DNA of 64,000 nt. Source: Bdellovibrionota bacterium. GTDB taxonomy: Bacteria; Bdellovibrionota_C; UBA2361; CALJRW01. A program made the translations under genes and the position numbers. Location of the stretch: contig JBGSMD010000064.1 in assembly GCA_041740355.1 (NCBI GenBank), positions 1 through 64,000 on the forward strand, in the 5' to 3' direction. This document shows, one piece after another, positions 21,434 through 26,362 of this stretch. Each line of letters starts with the position of its first letter. Positions within the stretch are counted from its first letter, which is position 1. The notes under the pieces were generated by a model. That model had not been told where the DNA came from, did no database searches, and saw only the letters and a list, made by a program, of their open reading frames with translations.

Positions 21434-22171
21434 CTAAAATTTATTTATAAAAATTACTTTTGAAGATTTCACTTTAGTTTCCATGTTATCCAGTAATAAC
21501 AAGCGATATTCGGATTGTTGTCTACTAGCAGTTAATGGATCACTGCGATCATTCTTACTTTCTGCTTTCATTTCTTGATCATCCATCATTAAGGAATGGG
21601 ATAACACTGAACGACGAACCAGAAGTTCGAAACAACAAGCGATTAAAACAATTCCTGTTAGCAAACCAAATAATTCATAAAAATTATTTAAGGGATAGCT
21701 TTTAGCTTGGCTCCAAGAAATTGGTAGGTAAAATATAAATGGAATAGCCATCAAAGGTATCAGAAACAGCTTAAAAAATTCCTGTTTAAAATGTTTCAGT
21801 TTGCCCTTGAAAACACTGAGTGGATTAAACTTGTTAAATTCACACAAGTTTTCACGATGGCTAATTTGAAACCTTCGTAAAAATAAATCTGTCAAAAGCA
21901 AAGACACACAAGCTACTAGCATGGCACCAAAAAAAATTTGAGTTAATAAACAGGCTAATTGGAGGATGTTATCGATTTGATAAAGACTTAAATTGCCTAA
22001 GCTGGATTTTAACAATTTTTGAATAGTTACCCAATAGAGATTTAATCCTTCAAAAACTAGATAACAGCTTAAAAGTAATAATAAGCACCCGCGAGTTGTA
22101 AAATAATGTAAAAACTGTCCGTTGCGATTAGCTTTTTGTAGTTTTTTAAGACTAGGTGCATGTTGTTTCAT
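21434..22171 (-). CDS. SctU/FlhB export switch protein, N-terminal part (TM + CN) only
   Basis: PSLKKLQKANRNGQ start, TM segments, LMMDDQEMKAESKNDRSDP (MSKQEVKDE.K..EGDP consensus); ends KVIFINKF where VVITNPTH is expected. Confidence 0.82.
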   Translation of the reverse strand: MKQHAPSLKKLQKANRNGQFLHYFTTRGCLLLLLSCYLVFEGLNLYWVTIQKLLKSSLGNLSLYQIDNILQLACLLTQIFFGAMLVACVSLLLTDLFLRRFQISHRENLCEFNKFNPLSVFKGKLKHFKQEFFKLFLIPLMAIPFIFYLPISWSQAKSYPLNNFYELFGLLTGIVLIACCFELLVRRSVLSHSLMMDDQEMKAESKNDRSDPLTASRQQSEYRLLLLDNMETKVKSSKVIFINKF

Positions 22172-22803
22172 CAGATCATCCCGCTAGTGATAATCAGCAA
22201 AACAATCATTATAGTAAAAAAGATTTCGGTAAAAAATGAACTTTGAGGGTACAATTTACTTACAAACATAAAAAAAACCTGAATTATCAAAAAACAGATC
22301 ACAATCGGAACTAACAAATGAAATCCAATACTTAATGAAGCTAAACTTACATCCGCAATCTGTTGCGCAAGGTTCTCAACAGATACAAAATTTGAAAAAC
22401 TGTTATCTAATTGTTTAAATATCTCTAATAATAAGTTCTGTTCTAAAAAAACTATCAATAGAATCAACTTAATCCCTTGGGCTAATTGCTGACTGCTAGC
22501 AAACTCATCAGCACCAAAAAAAATGGCATAATTCATTCCACGTAAATTTTCACTTATCTCAAAGTAGATTAACAAACTCCAAAAGCTAGCTAATAAACTA
22601 AAGCTAATAGTTATTCCAATAATAAAGTTATAAAAAAATCCTAGCGATGCAATTGGTAAAGTTGTATTACAATTAAGAAAATATTGGCTAAAAATCAAAC
22701 TTAAGATTGCTCGTCCTATTAAACCTGAGGCATTTAAATTATATGGTATTAATAATAGTGATCCATAAACTCTAATATAAATTGCCCAAAATTCAGGTAA
22801 CAT
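22171..22803 (-). CDS. SctT/FliR-like export gate protein (divergent)
   Basis: Hydrophobic protein between the SctS-like and SctU-like genes; ISENLRG and SKLYPQ match the D..RG and R..PQ motifs. Confidence 0.72.
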   Translation of the reverse strand: MLPEFWAIYIRVYGSLLLIPYNLNASGLIGRAILSLIFSQYFLNCNTTLPIASLGFFYNFIIGITISFSLLASFWSLLIYFEISENLRGMNYAIFFGADEFASSQQLAQGIKLILLIVFLEQNLLLEIFKQLDNSFSNFVSVENLAQQIADVSLASLSIGFHLLVPIVICFLIIQVFFMFVSKLYPQSSFFTEIFFTIMIVLLIITSGMI

Positions 22804-23064
22804 TCAGACTCCACCAATTAGAATAACCTGCTCTAAGCATCGTTCAACGAATATGCAAAAATTTGAATTCCAAGTTGGGAAAAAAATTATAATTGTAATT
22901 CCTGCGACTACTATCTTAATCAAAAAAAGAAATGTTTGTTCTTGTAATTGAAATAGTGTCAAAATAAAATTTAAAATTAAGCTAACCGTCGCGATTAAAC
23001 CTAAGGGCCAAATCAATCCAGTGAGCAAAAGATTTAGTGCTTCGGATAAAATCTTACTTAACAT
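22804..23064 (-). CDS. SctS/FliQ-like export gate protein
   Basis: 86 aa, two TM helices, QLQEQTFLFLIKI (QIQEQTL.F..K consensus). Confidence 0.82.
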   Translation of the reverse strand: MLSKILSEALNLLLTGLIWPLGLIATVSLILNFILTLFQLQEQTFLFLIKIVVAGITIIIFFPTWNSNFCIFVERCLEQVILIGGV

Positions 23065-23709
23065 TTAAGCATAAGATAAAAACAATGACTTAAAAATTAA
23101 TTGCCAAAAATCTAGCCCAACAATTAAGAGAATTTTGAGTGGCAATGACAATAAAATTGGACTAAACATCATCATGCCTAGTCCAGCTAAGAAATTGGCA
23201 ATCAAAAAATCTATTATTAAAAATGGTAAAAGCACCATCAGGCCCATTTGGAAAGCTTCGTTAAGTTCACTTAAGATAAATGCAGTAATAATAAGAAATA
23301 ACCCATCTTCCTGCAGATTAACGCTAGGTCCATTTTCCGCTCTTAGGTTTTTAAGAAAAAGGAGTTCCTCCGCTCCAGCGTGTTTAGTGACAAACTCCTT
23401 CCAAGGTTCCATAGCAGGAGTGAATTTTTTTAAAATATCGGAAATTGTTTGCTCTTCTAATTTTCCTGCAAACAATTCATTAGAGCTAAGTAGTTTACCA
23501 GATTTATCCCAAACAGGTTCCATTACCATCAGACTAATCGCTAATGAGATTGTTCCAATAATAACTCCTGAGGGTACTTGTTGCGCACCAATGGCATTTT
23601 TAAAAAGATTTAATACAATATTAACTTTTAGATATGCAGTGCCGATCACTACCAAGAAAGGGAAAATTGCCAAACAAACTGATAATAACAAAACATTCGA
23701 ATTATTCAT
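23065..23709 (-). CDS. SctR/FliP-like export gate protein
   Basis: TAYLKVNIVL, NAIGAQQVP, AFILSELNEAFQMG, PFLIIDF, LGMMMFSP, SLPLK; probable start is the ATG at 23709, overlapping the upstream stop. Confidence 0.9.
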   Translation of the reverse strand: MNNSNVLLLSVCLAIFPFLVVIGTAYLKVNIVLNLFKNAIGAQQVPSGVIIGTISLAISLMVMEPVWDKSGKLLSSNELFAGKLEEQTISDILKKFTPAMEPWKEFVTKHAGAEELLFLKNLRAENGPSVNLQEDGLFLIITAFILSELNEAFQMGLMVLLPFLIIDFLIANFLAGLGMMMFSPILLSLPLKILLIVGLDFWQLIFKSLFLSYA

Positions 23710-24475
23710 TTTGTAAATTGAATGTTTGATAGCCGAGTCCTTTGAGTGCTGCTTGTAAATATTGTTTTTGACCAAGCCACCAATTATAATCGCTATGTAC
23801 AGCAACTCTAAGTGTTAAATTACCCTCTAGATCTAACTCTAATGCAAATGCTTGTTCTCCACGACTTTTAGATTGATAAAGAAGTTCTAGTTTCTGTTGG
23901 TTTTGATCCTGCCTAACATTAAGATATTTTGTGGGCTGTTTTCTGGAATCTTGATTATCACCTGCTGGAACAAAATGGTTATTAGAATTTATTACTAATG
24001 AATCACGAACGATGCTTGAATCTAATAAATGTTTAATTTGATCTTTGGCCAACGAGATATCTTCAACTGTTTGACTTTTCAGCTCAGCATTTTTTGGATT
24101 TAAAAAATTTTGTATTTGGGAATGCTTCGGATTGTTATTCAAAATTTCTTCGGTTGATATTTGTAGTAAGCTTATATTAGGATTTGATTGATCTTTACAA
24201 ATTACCCTGGAATTTTGAATGTTAGGAAATAAAACTCTTTGATTATTTAATTGTATTTCAGGTTGATTCCGAAATTTAGAACTGTCCCTTCTACTTATTT
24301 CCATTCTTGCTATGTCTGGCTGAACTTTCGCTGAATTAAGAAAATTTCTGATCAGTCTGCTTACTCCAGAAGGACTTGCTAATCTATAATCAACTGGTAA
24401 ATTCAAACCAAATCTGAGGCCTTCAATCATACTTGTTACTAAAGATTGTGAAGGTATTACTGGGCTATTTTTCAT
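23702..24475 (-). CDS. Hypothetical protein, possibly SctP/FliK-like length-control protein
   Basis: Low-complexity N/Q-rich body; C-terminal beta-beta-alpha pattern ending LQAALKGLGY resembles a T3S4/FliK_C domain; coupled to neighbours in the operon. Confidence 0.45.
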   Translation of the reverse strand: MKNSPVIPSQSLVTSMIEGLRFGLNLPVDYRLASPSGVSRLIRNFLNSAKVQPDIARMEISRRDSSKFRNQPEIQLNNQRVLFPNIQNSRVICKDQSNPNISLLQISTEEILNNNPKHSQIQNFLNPKNAELKSQTVEDISLAKDQIKHLLDSSIVRDSLVINSNNHFVPAGDNQDSRKQPTKYLNVRQDQNQQKLELLYQSKSRGEQAFALELDLEGNLTLRVAVHSDYNWWLGQKQYLQAALKGLGYQTFNLQNE

Positions 24476-24762
24476 TGATTAGCCTGTACTTTTCTTAAAG
24501 TTTGTAACAGACCTTCCGCCGTCTTACTTAGCATTTCAATTCGCAAATGATAATTGCTAGCTTGAATTTGATACAGAATTAAATCCTGTGAGGAAAGAGT
24601 TTGTGTCGCTATCTTTTCGAAGGAAAAGCTACGATCTAAACCTAGTTTTTCAGTGAAACTTTGAATCAGATCATAAAATTTTTCTTGATTTATTGGTGCT
24701 AAGCTTTCACTGGAGGTAATAGCGACCTCGGGCCGAGGGTTTATTTCCGTAATATTCATCAT
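24472..24762 (-). CDS. SctI (inner rod)-like protein
   Basis: 96 aa; C-terminal SSQDLILYQ....YHLRIEMLSKTAE.....LRKV resembles the EscI/YscI helix pattern. Confidence 0.55.
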   Translation of the reverse strand: MMNITEINPRPEVAITSSESLAPINQEKFYDLIQSFTEKLGLDRSFSFEKIATQTLSSQDLILYQIQASNYHLRIEMLSKTAEGLLQTLRKVQANQ

Positions 24763-24819
24763 AATCAGTACCTTCTGTAGATAACTGACTATTATTCGAA
24801 GATACTTAACTAAAGTTGC

Positions 24820-25200
24820 TTAGTTCTTTTTTGAATTTTTACTTTCGATCATCAATGCTAAGATTGCGGCATTAAAGTCTTTTTGCTGACGGATAAAGTC
24901 TTTGAGGAAAAATTTGATAATTGGAGCAATTAGTTTTTTTAGTGAAACAATGATTGGTCCGATTATTTTACGATGAGAAGTAATTTGTTGATTTCTTAAA
25001 TCTACATCCCAAAGCTGACAAGCTGTACGAAGTTTATCTAGGAAGGGAGCTGTTATTTCGGAAGAATTTAATTTTAATTCAAAAGTTAATGCTTCTAGGT
25101 ATTTTTTTTGGTCCCAGGTGTATTCGATTTGAGAGATACGGTTTTGGATTTTGGATTCAAGCTGGAAGTTGGAATAGGTGGTATTGAGGAAGGTGGTCAT
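24820..25200 (-). CDS. Hypothetical protein
   Basis: 126-aa ORF; ITSHRKIIGPIIV.LKK...RQQKDFN pattern recalls coiled segments in polysaccharide-locus proteins. Confidence 0.6.
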   Translation of the reverse strand: MTTFLNTTYSNFQLESKIQNRISQIEYTWDQKKYLEALTFELKLNSSEITAPFLDKLRTACQLWDVDLRNQQITSHRKIIGPIIVSLKKLIAPIIKFFLKDFIRQQKDFNAAILALMIESKNSKKN

Positions 25201-25235
25201 GATCTATCAAATAACATTTAAGTACTCGAGTGTTG

Positions 25236-25362
25236 ATAATTCGCTACGCGAATTAAACGCACTCAGCTTAGTAGACTCCAACAGAAAAGTGCCAATAATT
25301 CGCTACGCGAATTAAACGCACTCAGCTTAGTAGACTCCAACGGAGTCTACTAAGCTGAGTGC
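25236..25362. repeat. 47-bp direct duplication plus 21-bp perfect hairpin at the tRNA 3' end
   Basis: ataattcgctacgcgaattaaacgcactcagcttagtagactccaac at 25236-25282 and 25295-25341; stem 25318-25338 pairs with 25342-25362. Confidence 0.9.
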
Positions 25363-25443
25363 CCGAAAGAGGACTTGAACCTCCACGACCTTGCGATCAC
25401 CAGACCCTTAATCTGGCGTGTCTACCAATTCCACCATTCGGGC
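25360..25443 (-). tRNA. tRNA-Leu, anticodon AAG
   Basis: GCCCGAATGGTGGAATTGGTAGACACGCCAGA-TTAAGGG-TCTGGTGATCGCAAGGTCGTGGAGGTTCAAGTCCTCTTTCGGGCA: class II cloverleaf with long variable arm, A73 discriminator, CCA not encoded. Confidence 0.95.
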
Positions 25444-25445
25444 TT

Positions 25446-25713
25446 ATATAGTAAGTCCAATAAGTAAATTTAAAAAACTAGCGATTTTGTTTGGACTCAC
25501 TATTTATGTTGTTTTTAAGTTATGTAAACTTGGATTTCCGCCGACGGTAAAGCTTTGGCGCGACAATAATCCAAGATTTACATTAGGCGTAATGACCATC
25601 TTTAATTTACTACCGTAAATTATTTTTTGTCATTAATATAGTAAGTCCAAAAAGTAATTTCCATTCGGAATTATTTTTTGGGGCTTACTATCCCCCGGAG
25701 GGATAACTATATA
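25446..25713. repeat. Family A hairpin units and a mini-element between tRNA-Leu and secG
   Basis: tatagtaagtccaa...ttggactcactat (25446-25503), tatagtaagtccaaaaagtaatttcc...ggggcttactatcccccggagggata (25637-25713), mini-element at 25537-25566. Confidence 0.8.
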
Positions 25714-25852: not shown

Positions 25853-26362
25853 TTAATCTACATTAGTAACTTCAGGTTGTTTAGCTTCTTCAACAACTGG
25901 TGCTACTGGTACTTCTACTTTAGCTTCAGGAATTATAACTTCAGGTACGGTACCTTCTGCTGAAACAACAGGAGCAATAGTAGTATCTGTTTTAGTAATT
26001 TCTTTTTTCATTTCAGCAGATTCTGCTGGCACAAGAGCTGGAACTTCAGGAGTTGTATCTTCCCCTTCATGAACTTGTGTATTAAGGATTGAACCTTCCA
26101 AGACATCCTTAGCAGAACTTTCTGTGTTAACAGACTGCTTCATGTAAAGATTAACTAACAAAATTGAAGTGACCATAAATGAAATTGCCATTCCAGTAGT
26201 CAATCGACCAATGAAGTTTGGAGCAGATCCTGCCCCAATTACAGAATCACTACTACTACCAAAAACGGCACCAGCCTCTGCACCTTTACCTTGTTGTAAA
26301 AGAACAAGACCAATAATAGCAGCACAAATAATAAGATGAATAACAAAGATTACTGAAAACAC
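25853..26362 (-). CDS. secG: Preprotein translocase subunit SecG with long acidic/Pro-rich tail
   Basis: LVLLQQGKGAEAGAVFG, two TM helices, RLTT motif. Confidence 0.93.
   Translation of the reverse strand: MFSVIFVIHLIICAAIIGLVLLQQGKGAEAGAVFGSSSDSVIGAGSAPNFIGRLTTGMAISFMVTSILLVNLYMKQSVNTESSAKDVLEGSILNTQVHEGEDTTPEVPALVPAESAEMKKEITKTDTTIAPVVSAEGTVPEVIIPEAKVEVPVAPVVEEAKQPEVTNVD

Follow-up and report, generated by a model that had tools for sequence, protein, structure and literature searches.

In this study, a stretch of DNA of 64,000 nucleotides (hereafter the window; positions 1 to 64,000 of contig JBGSMD010000064.1, forward strand, of the Bdellovibrionota bacterium assembly GCA_041740355.1) was analysed with respect to a leucine tRNA gene whose anticodon, AAG, begins with an adenosine at the wobble position (A34). 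The gene follows secG on the minus strand. The features on which the argument rests are the following.

25360..25443, minus strand: tRNA-Leu(AAG) gene, class II; long variable arm, discriminator A73 at 25360 (ARAGORN and Rfam RF00005).
25407..25409, minus strand: anticodon AAG, with A34 at 25409, a T on the plus strand (sequence and ARAGORN).
25400..25416, minus strand: anticodon arm CCAGA-UUAAGGG-UCUGG, with A31-U39 as the closing pair (sequence).
25853..26362, minus strand: secG, 169 aa, upstream of the tRNA gene (TIGR00810, 68.8 bits against a cut-off of 30.85).

The single tRNA that ARAGORN recognized in the window is a minus-strand tRNA-Leu (25359-25443, anticodon aag). The Rfam tRNA family RF00005 matched 25360-25443 on the same strand over the full model (1-71) with 51.1 bits (E 8.4e-9), well above the curated gathering score of 29, and the gene is accordingly a member of that family as a class II tRNA-Leu. 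The 3' end given by ARAGORN (25359) is one base longer than the discriminator A73 (25360), which is a minor mismatch. On the minus strand the anticodon loop reads U32 (25411), U33 (25410), A34 (25409), A35 (25408), G36 (25407), G37 (25406) and G38 (25405). The variable arm appears as a 12-nt insertion (gaucgcaagguc) in the RF00005 alignment, and its pairing is kept through compensatory changes in related genomes. A long variable arm and the discriminator A73, which is here the last base ahead of the tRNA trailer, are identity elements for the leucyl-tRNA synthetase, LeuRS. The 3' CCA is not encoded in the source genome (G000) nor in G001, G031, G019, G016 and G017; G002 and the orthologs of family f9 do encode it. 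Here and below, other G numbers denote species genomes of the same order and f numbers its families. The anticodon, the arm and the position of A34 had been proposed from the letters alone in the original prediction, and ARAGORN, Rfam and the reading of the minus strand all agree with it. The tRNA-Leu(AAG) gene is therefore confirmed as genuine.

The base call at A34 was examined against other assembled DNA. At position 25409, no differences were present in independently assembled exact-match contigs from the DNA runs X1, X2 and X4 of one study, one of these runs being a possible source sample. Moreover, a 7689-nt contig from a different study carried the identical tRNA (25356-25443, 0 differences), while its adjoining secG differed by 37 letters and 4 gaps over 262 nt (~14%). 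Contigs from four runs of two studies were thus concordant on the tRNA-Leu(AAG) sequence, and a C on the plus strand at 25409, the letter that would have restored a GAG anticodon, was not seen in any contig from these runs. An assembly slip at the A34 base is ruled out.

The G000 assembly comprises 3.27 Mb in 74 contigs with 36.3% GC, is 97% complete and contains 37 tRNA genes plus the tmRNA gene. Its leucine tRNAs carry the anticodons AAG, UAG, CAA and UAA; neither a GAG nor a CAG leucine tRNA was found among the 37 tRNA genes of this 97% complete genome. Consistent with the expected absence of a GAG isoacceptor, tRNA-Leu(AAG) was the sole leucine tRNA specific for CUY codons (Y being U or C). 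The only other A34 tRNA gene in G000 was that of tRNA-Arg(ACG). According to a genome-wide estimate from 2259 long open reading frames (ORFs), CTT accounted for 19.9% and CTC for 5.0% of leucine codons, the latter corresponding to 4971 codons.

A pattern search for the D-arm and anticodon in 91 species genomes of the order found AAG in 17 genomes, GAG in 64, both in none and neither in 10, of which nine were at most 87% complete. When 30 fetched loci were submitted to ARAGORN, 29 tRNAs were returned (7 AAG, 17 GAG, 2 CAA and 3 UAG), and further AAG loci were confirmed in the same way. The AAG pattern had no match in the rest of the GTDB phylum, represented by 33 more genomes of the same class. 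In G000 and in the order, AAG takes the place of GAG and the two are never found together, which is the behaviour described for the Lactobacillales. Furthermore, secG was located within 1.5 kb of the tRNA in 21 of 24 AAG or GAG loci, the three misses all belonging to family f3, and of the 13 AAG genomes inspected, 12 had it next to the tRNA. Since AAG and GAG genes share the secG synteny, the AAG gene is the GAG ortholog changed in place. The proposal of a G34-to-A34 switch in the native gene was thus upheld by the comparison with relatives, in which the two forms occupied the same secG-linked locus and excluded each other, and by the lack of a GAG gene in G000.

Several observations suggested that the AAG form has been maintained. 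The tRNA-Leu(AAG) genes of G000 and of the same-genus genome G001 were letter-identical, as was that of the more distant organism with the diverged secG described above, and AAG has been retained across a clade in which RpoB is only ~70% identical. Among 13 AAG orthologs, 10 of the 27 predicted cloverleaf pairs were conserved through two-sided changes, and the UUAAGGG loop was invariant. The evidence points to selection on the AAG form of the tRNA. This gene is probably the native, functional, CUY-reading leucine tRNA of the lineage, apparently derived from a GAG ancestor that was changed in place by a single G34-to-A34 substitution and kept.

The state at position 34 has changed more than once. 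A FastTree phylogeny of RpoB plus RpoC was constructed for 79 genomes (14 AAG, 60 GAG and 5 without an assigned state), 12 genomes without a usable rpoB piece being left out. This tree implied five changes of state, four of them forced by well-supported branches, and a quick IQ-TREE analysis also gave five. The groups concerned were the f1 plus f15 clade, which holds G000; G019; G017; a six-genome clade in family f9; and G028. The last was nested among GAG species of its own genus, and its TadA also grouped with those of its GAG sisters. In the approximately unbiased (AU) test, a topology uniting the f9 AAG genomes in one clade was rejected (p 2e-44), and one clade of f1, f15 and G019 was not rejected (p 0.64), nor was the same clade with G017 added (p 0.57); for both unrejected constraints the constrained tree scored above the quick free tree, and the deep branches are weak. 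The AU groups were chosen after a tree had been viewed, which makes these tests weaker, and the direction of change is unrooted. At least three changes of state are firm, and five are suggested by the best tree.

Codon usage was compared in up to 20 kb around rpoBC in each genome, these being sampled regions of related genomes. In seven f9 AAG genomes the rpoBC regions had 51-58% GC, and CTC, at 36-41% of leucine codons, was the commonest leucine codon. In three f9 AAG genomes, G028, G062 and G067, the leucine tRNAs found were AAG, CAG, UAG and UAA, and GAG was not found among them. The most AT-rich family, f8 (31-35% GC, with CTT making up at least 95% of CUY), retains GAG. Moreover, in a binomial regression of CTT/(CTT+CTC) on AAG state and on C/(C+T) at the other four-fold sites, no effect of AAG state was visible (coefficient -0.09 for 78 genomes and +0.04 for the 30 f9 genomes). 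The share of CUY among leucine codons was 0.25-0.36 in f1 and 0.65-0.77 in f9 AAG genomes versus 0.40-0.86 in f9 GAG genomes, a comparison with few independent contrasts, and the share in G028 was the same as in its sister genomes. The original prediction had regarded the switch as fitting an AT-rich, CTT-using genome. That explanation does not hold: AT-richness as the driver of the switch is rejected in view of the GC-rich, CTC-using AAG relatives and of the AT-rich family f8 with its GAG gene. Inosine reads U and C. Because CTC is the top leucine codon in the highly expressed rpoBC genes of these relatives and an A34 pairs well only with U, inosine is favoured over a plain adenosine at position 34.

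By analogy with Streptococcus, A34 is probably converted to inosine by the tRNA adenosine deaminase TadA. In the proposed course of events, a single G34-to-A34 change in the ancestral secG-linked tRNA-Leu(GAG) would have been retained, and A34 would be deaminated post-transcriptionally by the single TadA of G000. In its mature form, tRNA-Leu(IAG) would decode CUU and CUC, and possibly CUA as well, with tRNA-Leu(UAG) covering CUA and CUG. The source genome has the TadA gene that is expected of a Lactobacillales-type AAG-to-IAG system; it encodes 161 aa on another contig (G000:C46:83717-84202) and has the HAE and PCxxC motifs, and the best solved relatives of its product are the TadA entries 2B3J (E 7.5e-34), 7CPH and 2NX8. 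Across the order, 78 of 91 genomes yielded a TadA, among them 16 of the 17 AAG genomes; the remaining AAG genome is 70% complete. In addition, the f9 genome G068 was observed to carry TadA twice, the copies lying on opposite strands and separated by about 1 kb (G068:C126:11730-13627); this genome is 87% complete and gave no match to either the AAG or the GAG pattern.

The precedent comes from streptococci. According to published data, the TadA of S. pyogenes fully edits tRNA-Leu(AAG), with inosine at position 34 (I34) in vivo, its two substrates differ at positions 35 and 37, and the editing consensus for positions 32-38 is YUAMGRA (10.1101/2023.09.19.555891). Similarly, S. pneumoniae TadA is reported to convert tRNA-Leu(AAG) in vitro, and an isogenic GAG mutant of S. 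mutans was outcompeted (PMC13249217). As far as these two accounts extend, all natural bacterial tRNA-Leu(AAG) assayed so far carried I34 (PMC13249217; 10.1101/2023.09.19.555891). How a very sequence-specific TadA gains a second substrate was left open in the latter source (10.1101/2023.09.19.555891).

Two positions of TadA were of particular interest in this respect. First, the strictness of E. coli TadA for C35 has been ascribed in a review to R26 and R152, with G22 of the S. aureus enzyme leaving the pocket open (PMC10586758). The G22-equivalent residue, occupied by R26 in E. coli, was Gly in 14 of 16 AAG and 40 of 54 GAG TadAs of the order. Permissiveness at position 35 may thus have been a property of the ancestral TadA, and would help to explain the recurrent switch. 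Second, K106 of S. aureus TadA, equivalent to K110 of E. coli, is described as holding the loop backbone and, with N123, as the only contact to C32-A38 (PMC3711424; PMC10586758), and this Lys is stated to be conserved in all TadA examined there (PMC3711424). In G000, Val113 aligns with this residue (MDPV versus DDPK in S. aureus and RDAK in E. coli), so that the conserved Lys is replaced; the position is V or A in G000 and G001. The distribution of residues at the K106-equivalent position was as follows.

GAG genomes, whole order (54): K/R in 46, other in 8.
AAG genomes, whole order (16): K/R in 5, other in 11 (A in 7, Q in 3, V in 1).
GAG genomes, family f9 (19): K/R in 19, other in 0.
AAG genomes, family f9 (9): K/R in 0, other in 9 (A or Q), from two independent origins.

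Altogether, the K106-equivalent lysine was replaced in three AAG lineages, and position 113 was the only one of 171 TadA columns that was novel in both f9 AAG origins; a scan of all columns otherwise gave mostly clade-specific signals. G054, one of the genomes in which neither anticodon was found, has Ala at this site and would be predicted to carry AAG. A change at this contact makes sense because tRNA-Leu has U32 and G38 rather than C32 and A38, and the replacement of the lysine may, as a hypothesis, be linked to the editing of tRNA-Leu(AAG). In the tRNA, the A31-U39 closing pair, which also closes the arm of the G000 tRNA-Arg(ACG), was present in 6 of 17 AAG genes versus 0 of 64 GAG genes of the order. 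The fuller proposal is that tRNA-Leu(AAG) became an additional substrate of TadA several times within the order, with loss of the K106/K110 lysine as one route and with the tRNA drifting to an Arg-like A31-U39 arm; it is advanced tentatively and considered doubtful as it stands. If it were true, sister species that differ in G34 or A34 and in K or Q (G028 versus G039, G081 and G082) would form a natural series of inosine-decoding expansion, and the case would agree with a broader distribution of tRNA-Leu(AAG), as a common type in many phyla that is not confined to Bacilli.

A number of points weigh against editing by TadA and against the role of this residue. The G000 TadA scored 115 bits against NCBIfam NF008113, below the curated cut-off of 150; this model matched 12 of 14 control genomes and exceeded its cut-off in only 6 of them. 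The TadA of E. coli is reported to be inactive on streptococcal tRNA-Leu(AAG) in vitro (10.1101/2023.09.19.555891), and the presence of a TadA gene alone therefore proves nothing. The loop UUAAGGG fits YUAMGRA at positions 32-37 and departs from it at position 38, where G stands instead of A. It also differs at positions 32, 35, 37 and 38 from the loop of the G000 tRNA-Arg(ACG), whose arm is UCUGA-CUACGAA-UCAGA. Four AAG lineages or genomes (G002, f15, G017 and G019) lacked the change at the K106-equivalent position, and 8 of 54 GAG genomes had it as well. Moreover, chance alone would produce one shared column among 171 in about one case out of five. A tree-aware pair test was not significant, with 2-3 of only 4-5 pairs changing in the same way and 0-1 in the opposite way, too few pairs for such a test. 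Finally, CTC is rare in G000, so that an unmodified A34 together with tRNA-Leu(UAG) would suffice in this genome.

The last point leads to the strongest rival explanation, namely a functional tRNA with an unmodified A34 that reads CUU by Watson-Crick pairing and the other CUN codons by wobble or superwobble, with tRNA-Leu(UAG) sharing the load. The AT-rich source genome, in which CTT far exceeds CTC, and the four departures of the leucine loop from the tRNA-Arg(ACG) substrate loop count in favour of this reading, as does the rejection of tRNA-Leu(AAG) by E. coli TadA cited above. It also has an experimental model: as reported in a preprint, unmodified A34 tRNAs of four-fold boxes worked in E. 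coli, the four that were sequenced being expressed with A34 unmodified, and genomically expressed A34 tRNAs replaced native tRNAs without severe cost (10.64898/2026.05.15.725136). However, AAG is fixed in GC-rich relatives in which CTC is the top codon in the rpoBC region and no GAG was found, and no CTT enrichment accompanies the AAG state. Furthermore, TadA is present in nearly all AAG genomes, a TadA residue in contact with the RNA was replaced repeatedly, in coincidence with the switch, and the natural bacterial tRNA-Leu(AAG) assayed in the cited studies were all I34. Taken together, these data make an unmodified A34 rather unlikely, and conversion to inosine by TadA is the preferred reading.

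Deamination of A34 by an enzyme other than TadA, for example the 196-aa protein with a cytidine deaminase (CDA) fold at G000:C69:5428-6015, is very improbable. This protein has a dCMP_cyt_deam_1 domain with weak MafB19-like and Bd3614-like matches that give it no clear assignment, and weak homologs lie ~0.1-0.6 kb from the tRNA-Leu gene in G016 (AAG) and G006 (GAG). However, G006 has GAG despite the homolog adjoining its tRNA, and with this query homologs were found in only 8 of 17 AAG genomes, and the 31 genomes with a match among all 91 include many with GAG. The distribution thus does not track AAG, and the protein was rejected as the editing enzyme, a role that would also be without precedent. 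An assembly or binning artefact, or a decaying unexpressed copy beside another CUY-reading tRNA, is scarcely credible and already contradicted: the assembly is a 74-contig metagenome product, the sequence immediately ahead of the tRNA gene showed no sigma-70-like site and repeat DNA separates the gene from secG, but independent contigs from four runs of two studies agree, AAG occurs in 17 species genomes, its sequence is identical across diverged genomes, compensatory pair changes are seen, and the 97% complete genome has no other CUY tRNA.

The surroundings of the tRNA gene contain further features, listed below.

25491-25650, no strand: repeat element of ~160 nt, resembling a miniature inverted-repeat transposable element (MITE), edged by inverted copies of a 15-nt motif (repeat search).
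25446-25460, no strand: third copy of the 15-nt motif, ending 3 nt ahead of the tRNA (repeat search).
25318..25362, minus strand: trailer hairpin, its 21-nt arms perfectly complementary and separated by 3 nt, with a T-rich run behind it (sequence).
25229..25344, no strand: two tandem copies, 57 nt each at 59-nt spacing and 93% alike, of the distal arm of the trailer plus a small second hairpin.

The locus is of the secG-leuU type, with a CUY-reading tRNA-Leu downstream of secG on the same strand. The comparison with E. coli drawn in the original prediction was correct, as the K-12 locus, when read directly, has leuU annotated as tRNA-Leu(GAG) 14 nt after secG; a blastn search of tRNA-Leu(AAG) against E. 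coli genomes gave two weak matches only. In the window, ~410 nt separate secG from the tRNA and contain a hairpin after secG and the ~160-nt repeat element. The 15-nt motif has 206 copies in G000 (at most 2 mismatches), many at contig ends and often paired ~48 nt apart, and the high summed contig depth from the DNA runs over the repeat coordinates 25446..25650 is explained by this multicopy motif. Two ORFs of 62 and 66 aa in the spacer are doubtful since the spacer is repeat DNA, and a permissive Rfam search of the spacer returned nothing. The trailer hairpin overlaps the 3' end of the tRNA by 3 nt and, together with the T-rich run, looks like a putative terminator. The SecG model spans only residues 3-72 of the predicted protein, and the remaining tail of ~95 aa is rich in Glu, Pro, Val and Ala. 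Downstream of the tRNA, the type III secretion export-apparatus genes SctR, SctS and SctT and a short SctU-like gene occupy 21434-23805 of the window; the SctU-like gene (245 aa) matches only profile positions 2-260 of 341, and three ORFs without a family match (23702-25200) precede the Sct genes.

In the literature, bacterial tRNA-Leu(AAG) is described as mainly a feature of Lactobacillales, with Mycoplasma and Prochlorococcus mentioned, and papers based on GtRNAdb place nearly all of them in Bacilli (10.64898/2026.05.15.725136; PMC13249217). No prior report of tRNA-Leu(AAG) in Bdellovibrio, Verrucomicrobia or Akkermansia was found in a limited full-text literature search. In a pattern scan of species genomes, ARAGORN confirmed tRNA-Leu(AAG) in at least 91 loci (91 of the 120 matches listed). 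The confirmed matches listed carried at least 12 phylum labels, including Verrucomicrobiota (22), Bacillota (19), Actinomycetota (10), Pseudomonadota (10), Melainabacteria (3), Myxococcota (3), Bdellovibrionota (2), Caldisericota (2) and others, with 13 unplaced; labels such as Ca. Actinomarinales, Vampirovibrionales, Dependentiae/Babeliales and Saccharimonadota were also among the matches listed. Two arm types dominated among these matches, A38 with A31-U39 in at least 43 loci and G38 with U31-G39 in at least 35 loci. The original statement that Leu(AAG) occurs only in some lineages, such as certain Firmicutes, agrees with the literature in naming that group and is too narrow in view of at least 12 phylum labels. 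As a separate observation, 26 of 43 IMG/VR loci matching the pattern carried an ARAGORN tRNA-Leu(AAG), some beside tRNA-His or tRNA-Glu, on contigs that may be phage or host; such A34 tRNAs are stated in the literature to be absent from phages.

These findings extend a rare tRNA type, already described in lactic acid bacteria, to an uncultured lineage resembling Bdellovibrio. Of some interest are the recurrent switching between G and A among close relatives regardless of GC, and a candidate co-change in TadA. The lineage represents a case in a distant phylum in which the state flips at least three times among close relatives and independently of GC. Since the flips separate close relatives, they provide matched natural tRNA/TadA pairs for in vitro tests and one candidate residue. 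For annotators and codon-usage modellers, the data are a caution that A34 leucine tRNAs, which are common among uncultured groups, are no errors.

The closest known system is that of the Lactobacillales (S. pyogenes, S. mutans, the TadA of S. pneumoniae and Oenococcus oeni), in which AAG becomes IAG and replaces GAG without ever standing alongside it (PMC13249217); the replacement follows the same rule in the present order. As in the Lactobacillales, the genome has retained tRNA-Leu(UAG) and has one TadA, and the loop contains U33-A34-A35-G36-G37. Unlike the Lactobacillales, which belong to Bacillota and in which the state is fixed by family, the phylum here is Bdellovibrionota-like and the switch recurs within one order and even within one genus. 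The loop also has G38 where the streptococcal consensus has A38, and the inosine that we infer here has been demonstrated there. Moreover, the raised share of CUU plus CUC reported for Lactobacillales was not seen in the sampled regions of the family of G000, in which CUY makes up 25-36% of leucine codons. The E. coli leuU locus has the same order and strand, secG followed by a CUY-reading tRNA-Leu, with G34 and a 14-nt spacing there versus A34 and ~410 nt with a repeat element here. Mycoplasma tRNA-Thr(AGU) is an unmodified A34 tRNA. Like the engineered A34 tRNAs of E. coli, it shares with the present gene the replacement of a G34 isoacceptor by A34 in a four-fold box; these unmodified systems work without deamination, whereas the TadA present here and the codon usage of the relatives argue for I34. 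Finally, eukaryotic tRNA-Leu(IAG), which is made by ADAT2/ADAT3, has the same anticodon and decoding logic. That enzyme is a heterodimer of relaxed specificity that needs the whole tRNA, whereas bacterial TadA is a homodimer that reads the anticodon arm (10.1101/2023.09.19.555891; PMC10586758).

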